Source: an uncultured Candidatus Bathyarchaeia archaeon
GTDB lineage: Archaea > Thermoproteota > Bathyarchaeia > 40CM-2-53-6
DNA: 64,000 nt
NCBI GenBank assembly: GCA_964601325.1
Contig: CAZRNA010000001.1
Span: 4,042 to 68,041 of the forward strand
Direction: 5' to 3'
Shown piece by piece: positions 27,092 to 49,568 of the stretch. Both the position numbers and the translations under genes were made by a program. Below the pieces are notes generated by a model. It was not told where the DNA came from, did not search any database, and worked only from the letters and a program-made list of their open reading frames with translations. The stretch's first letter is position 1. Each line of letters opens with the position of its first letter.

Positions 27092-27505
27092 TTGGGCTTT
27101 CTTGGAAATCATGCACCCTACGCGGCAGACTTGAATCTCGTCATCCAAATAGTCGTGCTTTCCATGTTGCTGGCTGGAGCATACTTTGTGAGAGCGTCGA
27201 AACTCAAAACTCATAGTCGTCTTATGAAATCGGCAATTATCACCCAGCTTGGTGCGCTGATCCTTTGGATGGGCCCATCCTTGGTGCTCAACATCGAGGC
27301 GTTGAGGTCGTTCACGTCTGGTGTGATCATTACAGCTCTGCATGCTCTAGGGGGCGTTTTGGCGCTGGCTCTCGCGATCAGTGCCTCTTACCATAGAACA
27401 ATTGGCTCTTTGCAGTTGAAATGGACTATGTGGTCAGCTTTCATCGTGTGGACTTCGACCGTAGTTCTCGGAATAGGCTTCTACGTTTACTACTACTTGC
27501 ACTGA
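27092..27505 (+). CDS. Hypothetical four-TM membrane protein
   Basis: 137 aa with four hydrophobic helices. Confidence 0.35.
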   Translation: MGFLGNHAPYAADLNLVIQIVVLSMLLAGAYFVRASKLKTHSRLMKSAIITQLGALILWMGPSLVLNIEALRSFTSGVIITALHALGGVLALALAISASYHRTIGSLQLKWTMWSAFIVWTSTVVLGIGFYVYYYLH

Positions 27506-27558
27506 AACTGCCTCGCAGCCACAAAGAGAGGCAATGCATTCCAGTGGTCTTTTGGAGC

Positions 27559-28419
27559 ATGAGCCTAATGAAACGACTCCAGCTTGACGAAAAAATCGAT
27601 CTCAGGCTTGCCTCAAGACTCGCGCTCCGATTCTACGCTGACACTAGACCACACACTCTTCAGACAGGAGGACTTCACAAGGGTGCCATTGTTGTCTGTA
27701 ACGGTACAGAACTTGTCGAAGAGGCACTTGGAATCGGTGTCCCGGTGTGCAGGTATCAGGACGGTGCGCGATTCTCACTTAGCGCGGACACATTTCTCGA
27801 CGATTCCAACGAGAATCCAACACTGATCAAGATCTATGACATGAATGGGATAGCTTCGAAGAGATTCCGCGGATTGCCAATACGACGCGGAAGTTCCCTT
27901 GCGAGCCTTCTCAAGGCCCTGGAGAAAAGATATCGCGTCTTGCACAGGTTCAGAACCGTAGCAACCGTGATGCTGGACATTCTTAGTCTGTTTGGGATGA
28001 GAAATGAGTACTTAGAGTCCCCCTCAAAAGGACAAGTCGCGGTTACTTATCGAAGGAAGGGTAGAGGCTTGCAGATCGAGGCCACTCTCGACGAACTGTC
28101 CCGCGAAGGTCTACAGAACATCGTCTTTGCGAATGAGCAAGGAGGAAGGCTATTCAATGAATATGAGGATTCAACCGGGATCAGGCTTCATGACACACAA
28201 ATTGAACCTTGGCGAACGACCCAAGCAGAGTGGGCGAGTCTGCGTTCCCGAGTGTTCGGTGTTGGATTCAGACTAAACCGGCCAAGCGGGTGGCTCATGG
28301 TGAGGGGAAGAGAGGTCGTCAGAAACCGCATTTCTTGGTCCGGTCTAGACTTGTCTTGTGGGGAGTTGCCTCAGAAATTGGAGTATCTGGTAGAGATAGC
28401 CGGAGAATGTGTTAGTTGA
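27559..28419 (+). CDS. Hypothetical protein. The start is probably the internal Met at about 27559, and the gene is cotranscribed with the downstream B12-radical SAM gene
   Basis: The long ORF has a 4-nt overlap (28416) with the next gene. No motifs are recognised. Confidence 0.4.
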   Translation: MSLMKRLQLDEKIDLRLASRLALRFYADTRPHTLQTGGLHKGAIVVCNGTELVEEALGIGVPVCRYQDGARFSLSADTFLDDSNENPTLIKIYDMNGIASKRFRGLPIRRGSSLASLLKALEKRYRVLHRFRTVATVMLDILSLFGMRNEYLESPSKGQVAVTYRRKGRGLQIEATLDELSREGLQNIVFANEQGGRLFNEYEDSTGIRLHDTQIEPWRTTQAEWASLRSRVFGVGFRLNRPSGWLMVRGREVVRNRISWSGLDLSCGELPQKLEYLVEIAGECVS

Positions 28420-29792
28420 CTGACGTTGCTCTCGTCTATCCATACTTTCGGCCACCACGGGATGGATCTCCATTCAGATTTCCTCCTCTGGGACTTGGCT
28501 ACATCGCGTCCCACCTCAGGAATCACGGACTATCCGTGGGACTCGTTGACTGCACCTTCAAATCAGAAGATTCAGTGCTTCGCGCCGTCAGGGGTCTGAA
28601 CCCGTCGATCATTGGAGTCTACTCGATGTTTTCCATGAGCGCATCCACACTTCGCTTGGCCGGACTGTTGAAGGACGACTGCGATCTGCTCGTTGCCGGA
28701 GGCCCGCTTCCCACACTCTTCCCCGAAGACTACCTGAAGGTGTTTGACGCTGTCTGTATCGGGGAAGGAGAGGAAACGATGCTCGAACTCGCAGAAGCAC
28801 AGCTTGAACGACGAAAGCTCTCTGAGGTCAAAGGAATCTGTATCAGAACGGATCACGAGTCGAATACGACGAGCGAATCTATCATACGGACGCCTGCTCG
28901 GCCTCCAATTCATGATCTTGACTCCATTCCATTTCCCTCAAGAGATCTATTCGACAACGCGGAATACAAGGAGTATTTTAGGAGACGTTTCGGTCGTGAA
29001 GAGACTTCAATTATCACAACTCGGGGATGCCCATTTGATTGCGATTTCTGTAGCAGACCTATCTTCTCAAACCAGTTCAGAGCGAGATCCGCAGGAAATG
29101 TGGTCGATGAGCTAGAGCAGATTTCTGAACTCGGGTACGATTCTGTGTGGTTCTCCGATGATTGCTTCACACTAATCCCGAGCAGAGTTCTACATGTCTG
29201 TCGAGAGATCAAGAGCAGAGGCCTTGAACTGAAGTGGGAGTGCCTTTCAAGAGTCGACGGTTTTAGCGTTGACATGGCGAGGGAGATGAAAGCGGCTGGA
29301 TGCGAACGAGTATTCTTTGGAATCGAGTCCGGCGACGATGGAATTCTCAGGCAAATGAACAAACGAATTGATATCGATCAAGCACGCAAGGCCGTCGAGG
29401 CAGCTGCGAAGGCAGAGTTGAGGGCCGCCGCATTCTTCATCGTCGGCTATCCAGGAGAGACTGACTCAACGATACTACGGACGATTAGGTTCGCAAGTAG
29501 GCTTCCTCTCGACTACGCTTCATTCAGCCTTCCGTATCCGATTCCCGGGACCGGTCTCTATGACAAAGTCAAGGATAGACTGCGTGAACGGGATTGGCGG
29601 TATTCAAGTTGGAGACTGATCGACCATTCACTGCTGTATGACTCTGATTTCTCGGAGTTCAAACTGAAGTTCGCGATTGCCAAGGCAGCTATTCAACACC
29701 GAGTGAGGAAGCACGGCGGCAAATGGGGATACAGATTGTTCGGCACGCCCTTCGAAGCGCTTACGGACTTGGCCTTCAGGAGCCTGAGCTAG
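28416..29792 (+). CDS. Cobalamin-binding radical SAM enzyme (class B radical SAM)
   Basis: The N-terminal domain looks like a B12-binding Rossmann fold ('VALVYPYF...LGLGYIASHL...CDLLVAGGP'). Radical SAM motif 'CPFDCDFC' (CxxxCxxC). Confidence 0.75.
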   Translation: MTDVALVYPYFRPPRDGSPFRFPPLGLGYIASHLRNHGLSVGLVDCTFKSEDSVLRAVRGLNPSIIGVYSMFSMSASTLRLAGLLKDDCDLLVAGGPLPTLFPEDYLKVFDAVCIGEGEETMLELAEAQLERRKLSEVKGICIRTDHESNTTSESIIRTPARPPIHDLDSIPFPSRDLFDNAEYKEYFRRRFGREETSIITTRGCPFDCDFCSRPIFSNQFRARSAGNVVDELEQISELGYDSVWFSDDCFTLIPSRVLHVCREIKSRGLELKWECLSRVDGFSVDMAREMKAAGCERVFFGIESGDDGILRQMNKRIDIDQARKAVEAAAKAELRAAAFFIVGYPGETDSTILRTIRFASRLPLDYASFSLPYPIPGTGLYDKVKDRLRERDWRYSSWRLIDHSLLYDSDFSEFKLKFAIAKAAIQHRVRKHGGKWGYRLFGTPFEALTDLAFRSLS

Positions 29793-31087
29793 AGATCGAT
29801 TTCGATAGGCACATTCGGGTGATAGCGTCGAGGATCCGTTACTTGATTCTTCTGAGTGCGGGGATTCAACTCGCGCTCGGCGCCTTCACGGCACACCCCT
29901 ATGATGGACGAGTGTTCATGGCTGCTGGATACTTGGTGGCTCATGGCAATTCGCCCTATGTCCTCACGAGCGTTTCCAGCGTCTTTGGGAATTCACTCTT
30001 CCCCGACCCCGTTCCAGGCATCGGCTATCCTCCTCCTTGGGGCCTAGTATTGGCGTTATCCTATCTTGTCAGCTACAATATTGTCCCTAACCTGATCCTG
30101 TACAACTTCGCCATCAAGATCCCCATAGTCATCGGCAATATCCTTCTGGCTTTGCTAATCGGAAAAATGATCCTCAGCGCGACTTCTGATTCAACCAAGT
30201 CAGCAAACGCAACTCGCTTCATGCTGTTCAACCCATTTGTCATCTACACTACAGCCATCTGGGGACAATTTGATACGCTCAGTGCACTTCTGATGTTGCT
30301 CGCCATTTTCGAACTCACTCAAGGCAAGCGGCGTCTTTCAGCCTTGGCCTTGGGAGGAGCTATTGCATTCAAGTTGATCCCTGTTGTCCTGCTTCCTCTT
30401 CTGATCTTGCACGTAAGAAAACGCGAAAACTGGTTCCGTGCGTTCGAGTATTTTGCGTTCGTCGCTGCCGTTGTTGGGCTCTCATTTTTCCCGTTCTTGA
30501 TCGGTTGGAGTCCCCAACCCATCATCGATAACTGGAACATCCATTTTGTCCGAATCGGGGCGTTCTCGCCGATGAACGTATTACTTCTCCTTGGATTAGC
30601 CGGCGCCACAAATGGATTCAGCTTCCTGGGATTCCTCTGGTTGCCCTCTCTAGCGTTGGTCTACTTCATTCTCATTAGAAGAGGGACCATCAGATCCACG
30701 GACCTTGTGCTTCCAGCTCTCGCCGTGATGTTGGGAGTCTTTCTCACCAGATCATGGGTATCTGAACAGAACCTGAACTTTGTCGTTCCCCTTGTTCTCT
30801 TATCCTCCGTTAGGCAGGGCTGGTCTAAGAAGTGGGTTTCATCTACGTGGTTGCTCCCGCTGATATTCGCAGTGGTCCATACTTCGCCCACGAGCATGCT
30901 CTTCCTAACAGCGCCTCAGCCACTCATAGAACATACCCAACTCCAGCTGCAGCTCTTCTTCACGTCAGAGTTGGGCAGCGTAATACGAGCTTCGATAACG
31001 CTTGTGTGGCTCGCCGTGGGCCTTTCGCTCCTCCGAAAGTCGGTTCATTCCACCGGTCCCTCTCTTTCTGAAAGAATACCACAATAG
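29723..31087 (+). CDS. GT-C fold polyprenyl-phosphate-sugar-dependent membrane glycosyltransferase (DUF2029 / GT87-like)
   Basis: About 12 TM helices with a DUF2029-like N-terminal region. The start is uncertain because the ORF overlaps the radical SAM end by 70 nt. Confidence 0.5.
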   Translation: MGIQIVRHALRSAYGLGLQEPELEIDFDRHIRVIASRIRYLILLSAGIQLALGAFTAHPYDGRVFMAAGYLVAHGNSPYVLTSVSSVFGNSLFPDPVPGIGYPPPWGLVLALSYLVSYNIVPNLILYNFAIKIPIVIGNILLALLIGKMILSATSDSTKSANATRFMLFNPFVIYTTAIWGQFDTLSALLMLLAIFELTQGKRRLSALALGGAIAFKLIPVVLLPLLILHVRKRENWFRAFEYFAFVAAVVGLSFFPFLIGWSPQPIIDNWNIHFVRIGAFSPMNVLLLLGLAGATNGFSFLGFLWLPSLALVYFILIRRGTIRSTDLVLPALAVMLGVFLTRSWVSEQNLNFVVPLVLLSSVRQGWSKKWVSSTWLLPLIFAVVHTSPTSMLFLTAPQPLIEHTQLQLQLFFTSELGSVIRASITLVWLAVGLSLLRKSVHSTGPSLSERIPQ

Positions 31088-31196: not shown

Positions 31197-31730
31197 GTGC
31201 CTCGTTTGAACGACATGTTGCTTGGAGGATCTGGAATGAACGCGAAATCTATGGTAGTTGTCGCGACGCTTCTTGCTATGGTAATCTTGGCTTACAACGC
31301 AAGCGCCTATGCATGGAACTCTTCTCCTCAGATAACGAATTCTCTTGACGGTTCTGGGAACACAGTTCTCACTATCCAATTCGATTTCTCGCAAATGTCG
31401 GATCCGCCCACGGCGAGTCACCACCCGACTGACTTCCAGGTTCGCACCTCTACAGACGGATCTTCATGGACCGAGCAGGCTGTCGTCCACATCACATCGA
31501 TACCGGCAACAACCGTATTCACCGTGACCTATTCTCTCGGGAAAGTCACAGGCGATCTTCAAGCCCAAGCAAGACTCAATTGTAACGTCCATGGATGGAG
31601 TAACTGGGGACCGGACCCGGCAGTCCCTGTTCCGGAATTTCCCTTCGGAATGGTCACTGTGACCTCACTGTTGCTCCTGGTGGGAAGCCTCCTACTGGTC
31701 CGCAGGGAACGCCCAGCGTATTCGTCCTAA
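31197..31730 (+). CDS. Secreted protein with signal peptide and PEF-CTERM-like C-terminal sorting signal
   Basis: N-terminus 'MNAKSMVVVATLLAMVILAYNASAYA'. C-terminus 'PVPEFPFGMVTVTSLLLLVGSLLLVRRERP' has a PEF tripeptide, then a TM helix, then an Arg-rich tail. Confidence 0.45.
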   Translation: MPRLNDMLLGGSGMNAKSMVVVATLLAMVILAYNASAYAWNSSPQITNSLDGSGNTVLTIQFDFSQMSDPPTASHHPTDFQVRTSTDGSSWTEQAVVHITSIPATTVFTVTYSLGKVTGDLQAQARLNCNVHGWSNWGPDPAVPVPEFPFGMVTVTSLLLLVGSLLLVRRERPAYSS

Positions 31731-31829: not shown

Positions 31830-32711
31830 CTAGGCGCTCTGCTCTCTTAGTCTCTTTTCGGCTAACCGGCAGTAGTCTCGATTAATTTCCACGCCTATTC
31901 CAATTCTATTGGTCTGCAGGCATGCAATCAGTGTGGTTCCGCTACCGAGGAATGGGTCCAAGACGACGTCTCCTTTGTAGCTGAACAGTTTGATGCATCG
32001 TTTCGGCAGTTCGATGGGGAACGGTGCCGGGTGCCCAATCTTGGTTTTGCTTTCGCCGCTGAAGTTCCACACACCATTCGTCCATTGGATGAACTCATCG
32101 CGTGTGACATCTGATTCTCCTTTCCGCATCTTCTCCCACCTAGCTTTGTACATGACCAATATGGTCTCAACTGGCGCGATCACATAGGGTGCGGAAGCGC
32201 TCATCCACGATCCCCATGCTGTGCGTCTAGAGATGTTTTGCTCATTCCAGACGATTGTTGAGTGATACTTCCATCCAACTTCCTTCGCGATGGTCGTGAT
32301 GTCGGCGCACACGCTCTGCTGACCACCCTTGTTCTTGTCTAGCGGGATATTCAGGCACAGGCGCCCGTCAGGTCTGGCCAAGCCTAGAATCTTCGACAGC
32401 CACTTCCTGGTGAAATCGAGATACTGATCATACGGCAGATTGTCGTCATAGCCCCGGTACTTGATGTTGATGTCGTATGGAGGCGATGTCACGATGAGGT
32501 CTATACTCTCGTCTTGTATCGCATCGATCTCCAAGATGTCCGTATTGTAGATGCGTAGCGAGCTTGCCTCTGAGAACGGTTTCGTAGCTTTTTCAGGCGC
32601 CATTTGCTTCAGGCTTCTTCGAGCGATCCATCTGTTCACTGACGGCTTTACTCGTGGCAATGTCAAGGTATAAGAGTTTGACAAGGACTCCGGGGCGTTC
32701 ATACACTTCAA
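31830..32711 (-). CDS. Beta-class DNA methyltransferase (N4-cytosine or N6-adenine), apparently orphan
   Basis: 'IVTSPPYDINIKY' (motif IV, SPPY) precedes 'LDPFLGSGTT' (motif I, FxGxG), the beta-class order. No restriction endonuclease candidate is adjacent. Confidence 0.75.
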   Translation of the reverse strand: MKCMNAPESLSNSYTLTLPRVKPSVNRWIARRSLKQMAPEKATKPFSEASSLRIYNTDILEIDAIQDESIDLIVTSPPYDINIKYRGYDDNLPYDQYLDFTRKWLSKILGLARPDGRLCLNIPLDKNKGGQQSVCADITTIAKEVGWKYHSTIVWNEQNISRRTAWGSWMSASAPYVIAPVETILVMYKARWEKMRKGESDVTRDEFIQWTNGVWNFSGESKTKIGHPAPFPIELPKRCIKLFSYKGDVVLDPFLGSGTTLIACLQTNRIGIGVEINRDYCRLAEKRLREQSA

Positions 32712-32723
32712 GTAAGGTCTCTA

Positions 32724-33605
32724 ATGCCCATGCACTCTCACGCTTCCACCACCAAAGCGTTAGTGGTAGCCGTGGGCATAACCGCCTGTTTCTTTGTCAT
32801 TGAATTGGTCGGGGGAATTCTAACAAACAGCTTGGCTCTCCAAACTGACGCATTTCACATGCTGACCGACGTTGTGGCTCTTGCGTATGCCTTGGTTGCC
32901 GTTCGGCTTGCACAACGACCAGTAAGTTTGAGGAGAACCTACGGATATTATCGTGTCGAGATTCTTTCAGCGTTCTTGAACGGCATATTGCTTTGGGCCG
33001 TTGTGATATTCGTGTTCTACGAGGCCATCCAACGAATCCAATATCCGTCAGATGTCCAAAGCCTGAATATGCTGATTATCGCGGTTCTCGGACTCGTAGC
33101 GAACGGCCTAGTTGCAGCAACTCTCTCACGATCTAGAAATGCGAGCCTGAATCTCAAGGGCGCGTTCTTACATGTGATGGCTGATGCCTTGGGCTCGGTA
33201 GGGGCTATTTCTGCTGGGATAATTATGTTCTTCACTGGCTGGTACCAGGCCGACCCCATAGCTAGCATCATGATTGGCGTGCTGGTCTTCTACAGTTCCG
33301 GAAAACTGGTTCGCGACTCTGTGAACGTCCTCCTCGAAGGAGTCCCCAGCCATATCGACGTGTCCGCAGTTGAGCGCAGGATACTCGGGATGAAGGGCGT
33401 GAAGAACATCCACGATCTCCACGTATGGTCCATAGCCGACACCAAGATGTGCTGCATGAGCAGCCACGTGGTTGTGGAAGATGACACAAACGGCAAGGAC
33501 TTGGTCACGAAGCTCATTCACATTCTCAAGGAAGAGTTCGGAATCGATCACACAACTTTTCAGCTGGAAGACGAGAACTATCCGAAGGCTGCTGGCGAAC
33601 ACTAG
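32724..33605 (+). CDS. Cation diffusion facilitator family metal efflux transporter (CzcD-like)
   Basis: 'SLALQTDAFHMLTDVVAL' carries the H/D metal-site residues in TM2, and 'FLHVMADALGSVGA' the corresponding residues in TM5. Six TM helices plus a C-terminal cytoplasmic domain. Confidence 0.8.
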   Translation: MPMHSHASTTKALVVAVGITACFFVIELVGGILTNSLALQTDAFHMLTDVVALAYALVAVRLAQRPVSLRRTYGYYRVEILSAFLNGILLWAVVIFVFYEAIQRIQYPSDVQSLNMLIIAVLGLVANGLVAATLSRSRNASLNLKGAFLHVMADALGSVGAISAGIIMFFTGWYQADPIASIMIGVLVFYSSGKLVRDSVNVLLEGVPSHIDVSAVERRILGMKGVKNIHDLHVWSIADTKMCCMSSHVVVEDDTNGKDLVTKLIHILKEEFGIDHTTFQLEDENYPKAAGEH

Positions 33606-33674: not shown

Positions 33675-34646
33675 ATGCCTGAAAGCGCGATTAGAACACG
33701 CGGCCTCACAAAAGTCTTCGGAAAATTCACTGCTGTAGACGGCTTGAACTTGGATGTCAAACAGGGTGAATTGTTTGGCCTGCTTGGTCCAAACGGTGCC
33801 GGGAAGACTACTACCGTTCGCATGCTCTGTACCCTTATCGAACCGACAAGCGGCACGGCGACCGTTGCCGGTTACGACCTCGCAAGGGAGGCCGCCAAAG
33901 TCAGACGTGAGATCGGCGTTGTCTCGGAGGGTGTCATGCTCTACAAGGAGCTGACTATTGAGGAGAATCTGAGATTTCTCAGCAGACTGTACAACCTCCC
34001 TAGCGGAGAAGCAGAGAACAGGATAGCGCACTTGCTCGAGATGTTCAGGTTCGAAGACAAAGCAAAACGAATGGTGAAGGCCCTCTCGTCAGGTTGGACC
34101 AAGAAAGCACTGATTTGTGCAGCCCTCCTTCACAATCCGAAGATACTCTTCCTTGATGAAGTGACCTCTGGCCTAGATCCGCAGTCGGCAGCAGCCCTTC
34201 AAGACTTCACTAAGAGCCTTTGCAAGGAAGGTGTCACAGTCATCTGGACAACTCACTACATGACGGAGCCCGAGAAGATCTGCGACCGCGTGGGAATCGT
34301 GTTTGCGGGGAGACTGATCCAGGTAGGCTCGCCCAGTGATCTGAAGCGCAAGGTAAGCGAGCTCTCCGTCATGGAGGTTGAGACGCCAGGATTGTCAACA
34401 CAACAGCTGGAGAAGATCAAGAACATAGAAGACGTAGCCAACATCTCTTACAGTGATCCGGTCCTCAGAATCACGTGCGTGCATGATCACGCACTTGCAG
34501 AAAACGTAACGAGAATCCTTCTGTCCGAAGGTGCCAAGATCAGATCGATCAACACGAAAGGACCGACACTGGAAGAAGCTTTCATCAAACTGACTGGTGG
34601 CGAAGAAGAGATCGACCGCTTCCTCGAGAAAGGCCGGACAGAATAG
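33675..34646 (+). CDS. ABC transporter ATP-binding protein (ABC-2 / DrrA-like exporter ATPase)
   Basis: Walker A 'GPNGAGKTT', signature 'LSSGWTKKA', Walker B 'ILFLDEVTSGLD' and an H-loop. Confidence 0.85.
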   Translation: MPESAIRTRGLTKVFGKFTAVDGLNLDVKQGELFGLLGPNGAGKTTTVRMLCTLIEPTSGTATVAGYDLAREAAKVRREIGVVSEGVMLYKELTIEENLRFLSRLYNLPSGEAENRIAHLLEMFRFEDKAKRMVKALSSGWTKKALICAALLHNPKILFLDEVTSGLDPQSAAALQDFTKSLCKEGVTVIWTTHYMTEPEKICDRVGIVFAGRLIQVGSPSDLKRKVSELSVMEVETPGLSTQQLEKIKNIEDVANISYSDPVLRITCVHDHALAENVTRILLSEGAKIRSINTKGPTLEEAFIKLTGGEEEIDRFLEKGRTE

Positions 34647-34692
34647 ACGCAACAAGCGAGCGAAGCCAAATCACACAGACGTGGATGCATTA

Positions 34693-35846
34693 ATGTCTAC
34701 TAGGACGTTCCTCGGCGATCTCTTGGCAGTCATGACCAACGAATTTCGCCTTTTGAGGCGTAATCGTTCCGCGATCATAATCTCCCTTGTCATTCTGCCG
34801 ATCTTCTTCACAATATCTCTTGGAGGAGCTAGTGGCGGGGCGGGTGAGCACTTCACACCGACAGCACATATAGCCATCGCCTACGTTGATAATGATCTGA
34901 CGATTGCTTCAGGTCGCCTCTTCGCGACGCTTTCAAGCTCGGGGAATTTCAACAATCTAGTTCAAGGTTACAGCGAAGAGAGCGCCATTAGAACACTAGG
35001 AACCGGAAAGATCTACGCAGCAATCATAGTACCCAAGGGCTTTGAAGGTAACCTTGCAAAGGACAAGCAAGTCACCTTGGTAGTCTACGTGGATGACAGC
35101 ATAAACGAGCTAGGAGGCCAAGTCGTCTCAAGCCTACAGACCAGCCTGCAGAACTTCAGCCCGCGTGCTGAGGTAGGACCCCTTCTCAGCAAGGGTGCGT
35201 CACAAGTCGAGATTATTCAGAAAGGAGCCAAGTTCTCGAGTTTCAACATAGGCCTGACGATCATTCTAGCTTTGGTCATAATATTCGCAACATTCTACGA
35301 AATCGCGGGGGGCATGTCACGCGAGAGCGAGGAGGGAACCTATGTGGCCTGCTCATGAGCCCTATCAGTCTTGGAGCTGTAATGCTTGGAAAGACAACGT
35401 ATGATGTGGCTCTCAACATAGCACGTACGCTCATAGTTTTCGCACTCGCCTTCTACGCTTACGGAGCGAGGCCGAGTACCGACTTCGCTACAATCTTAGC
35501 GATCTCACTCCTCATAGCTTTGCTGACGATGGGGTTTGGATTCTTGATTTCTGCGATTGGAATAGGGGTGAGAGCGGTCATCATCATCGAGTTTTTCCTC
35601 GTGTTGTTCCTTTTCGCGTTCAGCGGGTTCATTATCGATAGAGAACTGCTGAGAGGGATATCAAGCACAATCTCGTACCTGCTGCCATGGGCGTATGGCA
35701 TCGAGATATTGAAGCGTACCATACTCATTGGACAACCTCTGCTTACCCTGGCGACCCCGCTCGGATTCATCATAGTATCGATCGTGACGTTCTACGGCAT
35801 TGCCTACGTTCTTCTGAGGTTGTCGCGAGAGAGGCTTGTCACATGA
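34693..35846 (+). pseudogene. ABC-2 family permease split into two ORFs (34597..35358 and 35355..35846) by an apparent -1 frameshift near 35340
   Basis: The conserved TM2-TM3 linker motif 'IAGExExGTLExLLxSP' is read as 'IAGGMSRESEEGT' in frame 1 and continues as 'LCGLLMSPIS' in frame -1. The two halves together make about 416 aa with 6 TM helices. Confidence 0.45.
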
Positions 35847-47280: not shown

Positions 47281-49431
47281 TTGAGCAAAGTAGTTCTTGC
47301 CGGTTGTACGCTGCTTGCACTTCTCATTCTGCCAATTGTTCCGATCACAATAGCTCCCTCGCTCACACTTGGGATGGAGCCAGTAAGGAACCCTGCCGCT
47401 ATGGGGCATGGTGTGGATAGATCCTCGCCTCAAAGCTCAGTGAACATTGGGAAACTGGGTGGTGACTTCAGACTCATTGTGATCCTGGTGGAATTCGCCG
47501 ATATCAAGCACAAGACATCTGCTGATCAAATTCAGAAGTTAAGCGTGGAACGGATGAACAAGTACTGGCTTGAAGTCTCATACGGCCAATTCAATGTCAT
47601 CAGCGACACTGTCGGATGGTTCGAACTAAGTCATGATGAAGCATACTACGGTAGGGACATGAGCCCCAAAGACCCTGGAAGCGATCAAAATGATCTCGAT
47701 GTAGTCGCCGACGCGTGCAAGTTAGTAGGGAACATAGACTTCAACCAGTATCAGTCTATAATGGTGATTTTCGCGGGGCACGGTCAGGATTCAGATGCCA
47801 AGAACACCGACCTGCTCTGGCCGAGCGCATGGTGGGATGGACTTGAGGCGAAATGTGGAAGCAAGACCTTCGCTAACGGAGGATTCGCTCCTGAGGTTAC
47901 GTCGTACGATACGGTCGATTTCGGGGGTGTCACGCACGAATTCGGCCACACAATCAACTTGCCTGATCTCTACGACGCCGGCCCCAACGCTCCCGACTAT
48001 TGGAAGACACGCGTAGACTTTGTGGGCATGTGGTCTCTGATGGCATCTGGCAGCTGGGGTGGGCCTGACGAGGACGGGACAGATCCTACAGGACTTGAAT
48101 CGTGGAGCAGGATCAAGCTTGGCTGGCTCTCAACCGTATCCATCCCCTTGGCCCCGGGCGGGTTCGTCCAGCAACTCAATCAATTAGGCGATACGACTGG
48201 CCCAAGGGCATTGAAGCTACTAGCAGCAAGCGGCAGATACTATCTGTTCGAGGCCAGGGCCAAGGTCGGAGTGGACAAGTACCTACCCGACTCGGGAGTC
48301 CTCATCACGCTCATAGACGAGTCGAGGGATTCGGGACAGGGCATCGTCAAAGTTGTGGACTGCCACCCTGGGACAAGATCCATTGACGACGCGACCTGCG
48401 GAGTGAACGAGTCATGGTCAGACGCAGCAAACAACATCTACATGAAGGTCATTGGGCAACAGGGAACTAGCTACACTGTCGCGTTCGCAAGCAAACCAAT
48501 AACGACTCTGAAGGTATACACAGCCGAGTTTTCATTGACGGGTGTTCCATCTTCAGCTTCTGCAAACGTCACGGTTGACGGCGCAGAATACGCAGAGATT
48601 ACAGGGAGCGAGAGGCTCGTGCTGGTCTTCCCGCTCGGCTCAACTCACACTGTCACGCTCTCCCAGTGTGCCACGGTTGGTGAGGACACGCGTTATTGCA
48701 CAACCGAAAACACGATCGCAGTCGCGACGCAGGGCACCTATTCAGTTCACTATGACACGAAACAGTATAGACTCCTCGTCGAGACACAGCCCTCATTCAT
48801 CGCATGGCCGATTGAGAAATGGTTCACAGCCGGCCAGACTGAGACGGTCGGACCATACGACGAAACTGTACCCGTGAGTGCCGGCATTCGCTACTTCCTT
48901 CCGGGATTGACAGTAGACGACACTCAACTCAAGGAAAGGACAGTGACTTTGCACATGGACCAACCACACATTGTCAAAGTCAGTTACGTTACCCAATACT
49001 TCCTCAAGATTACCTCGGCTTTCGGAAACCCGAAAGGCGAGGACTGGTATACGTCAGGCGACGTTGCCGAATATTCCGTGACTACTCCCTATGGCGTCCT
49101 GATACAGCACTTCTTCGTCTCATGGACGGGCGATGTGACTTCGGCCCAATCAAAGGGAACGCTGACAATGACAGGACCCTATGCAATTGAGGCCAAATGG
49201 CGGGACGACTACACTCAGCTTTGGGTCGCACTGGTTGTGTTGGCTGCGGTTGCGGCCGGATTCTTGGGCTTGAGACACCGCAAGGCAAAGAAGATCACGC
49301 CGACCACATCCGTTAGCGGTGCTCCCACCTCACAGGCAATACCAACAGAATCAGGCTGGTTCTGCATCAAGTGCGGAGCACCTCTTCCTCCAGATTCGAG
49401 CTTCTGCGAGATCTGTGGCTCTCGACAATAG
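47281..49431 (+). CDS. Secreted M6-like (immune inhibitor A-like) zinc metalloprotease domain protein with a C-terminal TM helix and a cytoplasmic Zn-ribbon tail
   Basis: TTG start after a GGGAGGT SD, then a signal peptide. 'VTHEFGHTINLPDLYD' matches the M6 'HEFGHxLGLPDxYD' motif. Near the C-terminus 'LWVALVVLAAVAAGFLGL' is a TM helix, followed by 'CIKCGAPLPPDSSFCEICG'. Confidence 0.6.
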   Translation: MSKVVLAGCTLLALLILPIVPITIAPSLTLGMEPVRNPAAMGHGVDRSSPQSSVNIGKLGGDFRLIVILVEFADIKHKTSADQIQKLSVERMNKYWLEVSYGQFNVISDTVGWFELSHDEAYYGRDMSPKDPGSDQNDLDVVADACKLVGNIDFNQYQSIMVIFAGHGQDSDAKNTDLLWPSAWWDGLEAKCGSKTFANGGFAPEVTSYDTVDFGGVTHEFGHTINLPDLYDAGPNAPDYWKTRVDFVGMWSLMASGSWGGPDEDGTDPTGLESWSRIKLGWLSTVSIPLAPGGFVQQLNQLGDTTGPRALKLLAASGRYYLFEARAKVGVDKYLPDSGVLITLIDESRDSGQGIVKVVDCHPGTRSIDDATCGVNESWSDAANNIYMKVIGQQGTSYTVAFASKPITTLKVYTAEFSLTGVPSSASANVTVDGAEYAEITGSERLVLVFPLGSTHTVTLSQCATVGEDTRYCTTENTIAVATQGTYSVHYDTKQYRLLVETQPSFIAWPIEKWFTAGQTETVGPYDETVPVSAGIRYFLPGLTVDDTQLKERTVTLHMDQPHIVKVSYVTQYFLKITSAFGNPKGEDWYTSGDVAEYSVTTPYGVLIQHFFVSWTGDVTSAQSKGTLTMTGPYAIEAKWRDDYTQLWVALVVLAAVAAGFLGLRHRKAKKITPTTSVSGAPTSQAIPTESGWFCIKCGAPLPPDSSFCEICGSRQ

Positions 49432-49568
49432 AGCTACACAACAGACTAGAGGAACGAGCTCTCGGCATCAATTGCTTGATTCCGCTCGTTTCCGGCATGA
49501 TATCAGTTCACCTTTTACGCGCTAGACAGTCGATAGATTCGACTACGATGTCCGGCAGGGAAACATGA

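Follow-up and report, generated by a model that had tools for sequence, protein, structure and literature searches.

What is a DNA methyltransferase (MTase) gene doing between a cation-transporter gene and a secreted-protein gene of an archaeon, with no restriction endonuclease beside it? We analyzed such a gene on the minus strand of a 64,000-nucleotide stretch of contig CAZRNA010000001.1 (assembly GCA_964601325.1), hereafter the window, from an uncultured Candidatus Bathyarchaeia archaeon. An earlier note, made from the sequence alone, had read it as an orphan DNA MTase of the beta (SPPY) class, and the domain, motif and nuclease-absence evidence described below supports this reading. We put the probability at roughly 0.75 that the gene encodes a functional, vertically inherited ("persistent") orphan Type II MTase of the beta class that most likely forms N4-methylcytosine (m4C); its activity we infer from sequence.

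The methyltransferase gene and its motifs

The open reading frame (ORF) listed at 31830..32711 on the minus strand is present and encodes 293 amino acids (aa) from a TTG codon. The features on which its assignment depends are as follows.

31830..32603, minus strand: MTase coding sequence of 257 aa from its probable start, the ATG that is M37 of the listed ORF (start placed from homologue lengths and upstream alignment)
32472..32489, minus strand: catalytic motif IV, TSPPYD, aligning with TSPPY of TTHA0409
31932..31961, minus strand: S-adenosylmethionine (SAM)-binding motif I, LDPFLGSGTT, aligning with LDPFAGTGTT of 2zie

The protein matched the whole of the Pfam model PF01555 N6_N4_Mtase (1-221 of 221, E 2.8e-47, 161.9 bits; curated cut-off, 26.7 bits) and the PADLOC Type II MTase model PDLC03353 (MTase_II) with an E of 3.9e-93. 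Motif IV (aa 75-80) lies N-terminal to motif I (aa 251-260; numbering of the 293-aa listed ORF), which is the beta-class order; these coordinates bear out the order, TSPPYD before LDPFLGSGTT, that had been noted earlier. With a score above the PF01555 threshold and a (D/N/S)PP(Y/F) motif IV preceding an FxGxG motif I, the protein belongs to the beta-class amino-MTases. The best match among solved structures was PDB 2zie (TTHA0409 of Thermus thermophilus HB8; E 5e-27, 98 bits, residues 53-289), and further matches were 8urk (a DPPY enzyme), 8s9n (rotifer DNA cytosine-N4 MTase; E 2.7e-17) and 1boo (M.PvuII; E 2.4e-10).

The base modified

The window MTase carries serine at the first position of motif IV (SPPY/SPPF), the feature by which cytosine-N4 enzymes are distinguished. 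SPPY was present in all of the closest-relative clusters (120/120) and in 138 of the 139 50%-identity cluster representatives showing the motif, the remaining one having SPPF. N4CMT, a cytosine-N4 enzyme, has SPPY as its catalytic motif, whose serine and proline position the target amino group, and the motif of the adenine enzyme CcrM is DPPY (PMC10406627). Because motif IV is SPPY across the relatives, the predicted product is likely N4-methylcytosine rather than N6-methyladenine.

We consider it unlikely that the enzyme instead modifies N6 of adenine, with everything else as proposed. PF01555 spans both activities, JGI names relatives adenine-specific, the NCBIfam models that come closest are for adenine MTases, although the score stays far below their cut-off (74.8 bits vs 292), and M.PvuII reportedly also modifies adenine weakly. 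Against this, essentially all family members have SPPY as motif IV, and among the matched structures SPPY is found in the cytosine-N4 enzyme N4CMT (8s9n) and in TTHA0409, whereas 8urk has DPPY, as does CcrM (PMC10406627).

Relatives in restriction-modification systems

At E<=1e-30 the MTase family comprised 654 clusters of 50% identity. When a single genome of each species was scanned, relatives of 72-93% identity appeared in Bathyarchaeia, and relatives of 59-71% identity in Chloroflexota, WOR-3, Omnitrophota, Planctomycetia, Francisella, Bdellovibrionales, Aquificales, Clostridia, a CPR bacterium, Syntrophoarchaeum and a 'Thaumarchaeota' metagenome-assembled genome (MAG). Such a spread across phyla is a signature of horizontal transfer. 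Neighbour clustering indicated that nearly all bacterial and several archaeal homologues (those of 59-76% identity to the window MTase) are tightly linked to a nuclease gene, the two genes abutting or overlapping by a few bases.

The nuclease partners were of different kinds. An HNH nuclease of ~200 aa with an N-terminal winged-helix-like region (PF01844/PF14279) was present at twelve loci (including L018, L019, L022, L024, L025, L028, L029, L030, L033 and L039), and on plasmid pCALNI01 (NC_014749) of the cultured Calditerrivibrio nitroreducens the protein WP_013447292, a RefSeq 'HNH endonuclease', directly follows the MTase. A BsaWI-like PD-(D/E)xK nuclease (PF18643 RE_BsaWI) was the partner at L014, L015, L017, L020, L021, L031, L037, L054 and L055, with a partial copy at L035. 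PDB searches by single partner-nuclease sequences gave nothing useful and NCBIfam held no model for the partner nucleases; a profile of seven BsaWI-like partners had BsaWI itself as its sole meaningful PDB match (4zsf, E 0.0037), and the alignment matched up the catalytic Glu, Asp and SxK. A PD-ExK partner of 164 aa was found at L026 and L027. At L048 (3843-6883) the MTase lies between a ribbon-helix-helix-like protein and a protein of 509 aa whose IVEAK motif is PD-ExK-like; an EVE-domain protein comes next, and AIPR is also in the surroundings. L034 carries a second MTase, of the C5 type. Nuclease decay was observed among the relatives, with an N-terminally truncated gene at L050 and frameshifted genes at L036 and L040. 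Because the relatives are tightly linked to at least three unrelated nuclease families, we assign the family to the Type II modification enzymes of mobile restriction-modification (R-M) systems whose nuclease partners are exchanged.

Several further observations concern the relatives. At L038 (5497-7374, a Chloroflexia MAG), MTase and HNH nuclease form a single ORF of 625 aa, which is either a genuine fused R-M protein or a long-read assembly error. A ribbon-helix-helix-like protein of 53-54 aa is conserved directly upstream of the MTase in L048 and L055 (L055 3826-3990) and is a possible controller protein. At L051 (564-4792), an orphan relative of 77% identity starts 4 nt after an Mre11-like/Rad50-like pair and is followed by a protein with an HNH-motif tail fused to HEAT-like repeats, in what is a repair operon or a defence island. 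A link to DNA repair, considered from the Mre11-Rad50 (L051) and NurA-HerA (L048) neighbours, was rejected; these contexts are not shared with the window and are partly defence-island-like. No close relative was found in viral contigs by a scan that detects near-identical peptides only, a cluster look-up of ten representatives returned generic JGI names only, and Calditerrivibrio is absent from the supplements of Blow et al. 2016.

Search for a cognate nuclease

The two genes flanking the MTase gene, to which the following comparisons refer, are listed below.

32724..33605, plus strand: CDF cation-efflux transporter (PF01545 and PF16916; TIGR01297, E 2.3e-83), divergent from the MTase; treated as a synteny anchor only and not as a functional partner
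31197..31730, plus strand: small secreted-type protein of 177 aa with a signal-like hydrophobic N-terminus and a C-terminal PEF + hydrophobic + RRER tail, convergent with the MTase across a 99-nt spacer; not a nuclease

Seventeen proteins encoded within ~13 kb of the MTase were compared with Pfam and/or PADLOC models. In agreement with the earlier note, they included no restriction nuclease, specificity subunit or Vsr, and no endonuclease homologue was found among the adjacent small ORFs. A tblastn search with the three partner nuclease families (HNH, BsaWI-like and 164-aa) against the whole window gave nothing credible; a weak match of the HNH partner at 49050-49475 (E 0.016) lies inside an ORF for a 716-aa secreted protein and was rejected as chance. 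The partner nucleases also had no homologue in 80 orthologous loci sampled by means of the CDF protein (see below). The window MTase accordingly has no cognate nuclease next to it, as a complete Type II R-M system would.

The MTase could still be half of a working R-M system whose nuclease lies elsewhere in the genome or is an unrecognized protein nearby, an explanation we regard as rather improbable. Type II nucleases are hard to recognize from sequence (PMC10609329), the visible portion of the genome is 64 kb, and two nearby proteins (27421-28419 and 31197-31730) have no family assignment. However, the partner nuclease in the relatives is always immediately adjacent, and the searches of the window and of the 80 loci found no homologue of any of these three families. 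The first of the two unassigned proteins (332 aa) is absent from L008, L004, L010 and L053, which retain the MTase; the second (177 aa), absent from L053, begins with a signal-like stretch and ends in a membrane-anchor tail.

Conservation of the orphan gene at one locus

The MTase gene occupies the same position in L004-L008, L010, L012, L013, L052 and L053, lying alone between the CDF gene and the small secreted-protein gene; in L053 it is kept and the secreted-protein flank is absent. Retention was estimated without selection on the MTase: 80 metagenome contigs were fetched by CDF-protein similarity, and the MTase was looked for afterwards. It was present in 22 of 24 informative contigs with a CDF protein at least 75% identical, on the opposite strand and upstream with a gap of usually 121-340 nt, and in none of the informative contigs with a CDF protein 45-74% identical (0/32). 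All full-length MTase copies in this sample (21/21) were free of stop codons and contained SPPY and DPFxGSG. In the two exceptions, L071 (2601-3398) and L125 (2602-3378), the MTase position is taken by a gene for a ZIP-like metal transporter, divergent from CDF, as it is in the more distant L084 (2614-3390). This ZIP-CDF arrangement is probably the ancestral one, which the MTase would have replaced. A single arrival of the MTase at the CDF locus in one sublineage is the simplest reading.

The clade of the window MTase was recovered in 80/80 bootstraps, and its members are all solitary and adjoin a CDF gene; the enclosing archaeal clade (74/80) also includes BsaWI-linked genes of Bathyarchaeia and Syntrophoarchaeum. 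The identities of MTase and CDF proteins to those of the window co-vary (r = 0.78, n = 26). Pairwise dN/dS of the MTase was 0.04-0.15, with dS ranging from 0.25 to saturation (>2), and the values were 0.03-0.10 for the CDF gene and 0.06-0.27 for the small secreted-protein ORF. The gene is therefore present in most members of the group, at a fixed position, without a nuclease and under purifying selection, as expected of a lineage-conserved orphan; the taxon here is defined by locus similarity (CDF identity of at least 75%), not by taxonomic rank. A check of GC content and codon usage for horizontal acquisition, proposed in the earlier note, revealed ordinary composition (GC 0.514, z = -1.1; GC3, z = +1.5; codon usage 13th most deviant of 57 genes), and there is no sign of recent transfer of the MTase gene.

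It is very improbable that the MTase has lost its function and is drifting to decay as the relic of a lost R-M system. The family is R-M derived, nucleases have decayed in L050, L036 and L040, and the orthologue in L012 has an internal stop. However, dN/dS is 0.04-0.15 over saturated synonymous divergence, as low as that of the housekeeping neighbour, all 21 full-length orthologues are intact with both motifs, and the window MTase matches its family model over the full length. The word "remnant" in the earlier note thus held for descent, as the nuclease-linked relatives indicate, and failed for decay, since the gene is intact, constrained and kept in 22/24 contigs.

An RNA or protein substrate is scarcely credible: similarity to tRNA MTases (Trm14, TrmN) is weak and sub-threshold (E 8e-6 to 4e-4, 20-25 bits vs cut-offs of 280-350) and a UPF0020 match is marginal, whereas DNA MTase models and structures match orders of magnitude more strongly and provide the top matches, and restriction nucleases accompany the relatives of 59-76% identity, an association that is sensible only for a DNA-modifying enzyme; this pairing of the family settles the substrate as DNA. 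Equally remote is the suggestion of the earlier note that the MTase is part of a non-canonical, multi-gene defence locus with its neighbours, because defence-like surroundings occur only around some relatives (L048, with its ribbon-helix-helix-like, 509-aa PD-ExK-like, EVE and AIPR proteins; L055, with GmrSD and an integrase), whereas the window MTase is surrounded by genes for transporters, a secreted protein and lipid or glycan functions, none with a PADLOC match, and the adjacent genes other than CDF vary among orthologous loci while the MTase is kept.

Some points weigh against a functional, vertically inherited cytosine-N4 orphan. The branch order within the archaeal clade is not resolved (23-53 of 80 bootstraps), so it is nuclease decay elsewhere and the distribution, rather than the tree, that support the direction from R-M system to orphan. 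Persistence is counted over metagenome contigs sampled at one locus rather than over a set of complete genomes. The syntenic orthologue in L012 (6001-6792) has an in-frame stop at codon 176 beside a small insertion, which could be a real inactivation or a long-read (nanopore) assembly error. As 64 kb of the genome is visible, a nuclease may lie at an unlinked position. Finally, automatic JGI annotation labels close relatives adenine-specific, a label without experimental weight in either direction.

Start codon and conserved intergenic element

Most homologues are 251-270 aa long and span ~85% of the listed ORF, and the L004 orthologue has a stop codon inside the supposed N-terminal extension. 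An alignment of the region between the CDF and MTase genes from six orthologous loci revealed a near-invariant block of 31 nt, TTGTCAAACTCTTATACCTTGACATTGCCAC, within otherwise variable DNA. This block occurs once in the window, with 0 occurrences expected by chance.

32654..32684, minus strand: conserved intergenic element TTGTCAAACTCTTATACCTTGACATTGCCAC, in which the inverted repeat TGTCAA/TTGACA encloses a TATA-like box; the MTase and CDF genes diverge on either side of it

Because this element lies inside the first 36 codons of the listed ORF, and because of the L004 stop and the homologue lengths, the true start is probably the ATG at 32603, which would give 257 aa and leave the first 36 codons untranslated. 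This start leaves 120 nt for two divergent promoters, whereas the listed one leaves only 12 nt. The ORF reported earlier exists, and the limits of the gene are better given as 31830..32603. The element is probably the shared promoter/operator region of the MTase and CDF genes, as judged from its position and repeat structure, and besides a promoter it may contain an operator for a regulator, perhaps a metal-responsive one for the CDF gene.

Recognition target

In the BsaWI-type (CCGG) nuclease family, an R-(D/E)-R motif reads CCGG (PMC4652773). The BsaWI-like partners of L031 and L037 have R-E-R four residues after the catalytic lysine. In the alignment to BsaWI, the catalytic E, D and (S)xK were conserved in 7/7 partners, and R-E-R was present in L031 and L037 only. 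The archaeal BsaWI-like partners (L014, L015, L017, L020, L054 and L055) have H-G-R or H-N-R instead, with the catalytic residues and the last arginine kept. H-G-R in the archaeal partners may represent a changed specificity within the CCGG family, and a CCGG-like core is no more than a lead to the target of the MTase.

Word avoidance was examined by comparing observed with expected numbers of palindromes of 4, 5 and 6 nt in relatives with R-M systems, syntenic orphans, the window and the Calditerrivibrio plasmid. Neither CCGG nor NCCGGN was avoided in the R-M-bearing loci. GGWCC was the most depleted 5-mer (123 observed vs 219 expected), in some loci only, and GATC, GGCC and CTAG were strongly avoided in subsets and not in others with intact systems. 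Target prediction from word avoidance was abandoned, as no word was avoided consistently across the sets, and we therefore claim no target. On the Calditerrivibrio plasmid (NC_014749, 1-50000), CTAG occurred 6 times against ~90 expected under a Markov model, which may be unrelated to the MTase-HNH pair.

Comparison with known systems

Anton and Roberts (2023, PMC10609329) describe persistent Type II orphan MTases of the beta class that form m4C as common among archaeal taxa; examples are a CTAG enzyme in Halobacteria and, in Nitrososphaerota and Methanomicrobiales, enzymes for AGCT, GTAC and CGCG. The window MTase resembles these as a small beta-class enzyme of the cytosine-N4 type that lacks a partner nuclease and is inherited vertically within one archaeal taxon; the likeness is one of description, as the supplement of the survey gives cluster numbers and not sequences. 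It differs in that Bathyarchaeia are not mentioned in the survey and that conservation here extends to one sublineage (CDF identity of at least 75%), not to a class.

Among characterized or solved proteins, TTHA0409 (2zie), a putative modification methylase, shares the TSPPY motif IV, an HPAPFP motif and the DPFxGxGTT motif I, but it is only distantly similar (98 bits) and contains additional insertions. N4CMT of Adineta vaga (8s9n) and M.PvuII (1boo), both demonstrated cytosine-N4 MTases, share the beta-class order and an SPPY/SPPF motif; similarity to them is low, M.PvuII belongs to a complete R-M system, and N4CMT is eukaryotic and has a chromodomain. The connection to BsaWI (W/CCGGW) and the CCGG family is through the relatives, many of which are paired with BsaWI-like nucleases, with R-E-R kept in L031 and L037; the window, in contrast, has no such nuclease, and the archaeal partners have H-G-R or H-N-R. 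The bacterial orphans Dam and CcrM are likewise solitary, lineage-conserved and of R-M ancestry, and CcrM is also of the beta class. However, DPPY, adenine as the target and known roles in repair and the cell cycle belong to Dam/CcrM, and the CcrM model scored the window MTase at 54.5 bits against a cut-off of 830.

Proposed origin and role

We propose that, in the ancestor of a single sublineage of Bathyarchaeia, a copy of an R-M-family MTase without its nuclease came to lie between the PEF-tail gene and the CDF gene, and would have been inherited vertically under purifying selection thereafter. The enzyme would flip the target cytosine out of a short specific sequence and transfer a methyl group from SAM to its N4, so that all such sites across the chromosome would be marked. 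Two uses of the mark can be envisaged. It might be an epigenetic mark read by DNA-binding proteins, as a regulatory or replication/repair signal of the kind proposed for other persistent archaeal orphans (PMC10609329), or it might shield the chromosome at all times from restriction systems with the same specificity. Related R-M systems do circulate in other Bathyarchaeia, including on an integrase-bearing element (L055).

A fuller scenario can be offered only tentatively, and we would not bet on it as a whole. In this scenario, one sublineage would bear a fixed genome-wide m4C mark, its writer captured once from a BsaWI-like system and used for regulation or replication/repair signalling; the same mark would give permanent immunity to related mobile R-M systems, and the archaeal H-G-R nucleases would represent a new specificity in the CCGG family.

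Bathyarchaeia are abundant, uncultured archaea of sediment and soil, and no Bathyarchaeia methylome was found in the literature searched. The prediction is that one sublineage has one fully methylated m4C motif written by the 257-aa enzyme. Such a motif could aid the binning of Bathyarchaeia genomes in long-read metagenomes by methylation signature. The loci also form a natural series from complete R-M systems (L014, L054 and L055) through a decaying nuclease (L050) to the fixed orphan of the window, which would be useful for studying the domestication of modification enzymes. Since persistent orphans that form m4C have been documented before, in other groups of archaea, current understanding is unchanged; the kind of gene is already known, and the finding is sound but unsurprising.

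Other genes of the locus

The flanking genes had been described earlier as encoding a CDF transporter and a PEF-CTERM secreted protein. The TIGR01297 match bears out the former. For the latter, the tail pattern and the signal-like start are recognizable by eye, but the PEF-CTERM domain model was not matched, so the label is a by-eye one: the ORF at 31197-31730 had no Pfam, NCBIfam or PADLOC match, and none in NCBIfam at E<=10 with either the whole protein or its last 50 residues. Its orthologues (L004, L007, L008, L010, L013 and L052; absent in L053) are 60-68% identical and diverge faster than their neighbours.

No PADLOC defence model was matched among the remaining neighbours, which include a Hef/XPF helicase-nuclease, a thymidylate kinase, a polyprenyl synthetase, a DHH phosphoesterase, a B12/radical-SAM enzyme, a GT87-like glycosyltransferase, an ABC-2 transporter, a CARDB surface protein and a cobalamin adenosyltransferase. 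The Hef/XPF protein, 6.5 kb from the MTase, is a housekeeping repair enzyme.

Two differences among the syntenic loci were observed. A three-gene block at 27421-31087, encoding the 332-aa protein of unknown family (27421-28419), the B12/radical-SAM enzyme and the GT87-like membrane glycosyltransferase, is present in the window, L007, L012 and L013 and absent in the closest relative L008 and in L004, L010 and L053, all of which have the MTase. Because it is present or absent among syntenic relatives, the block represents an indel, with synteny conserved in other respects. In the window, the gene for the first ABC-2 permease appears split into ORFs of 253 aa (34597-35358) and 163 aa (35355-35846), and L007 has a single gene of 387 aa; the split at 34597-35846 may be a frameshift or a sequencing error.

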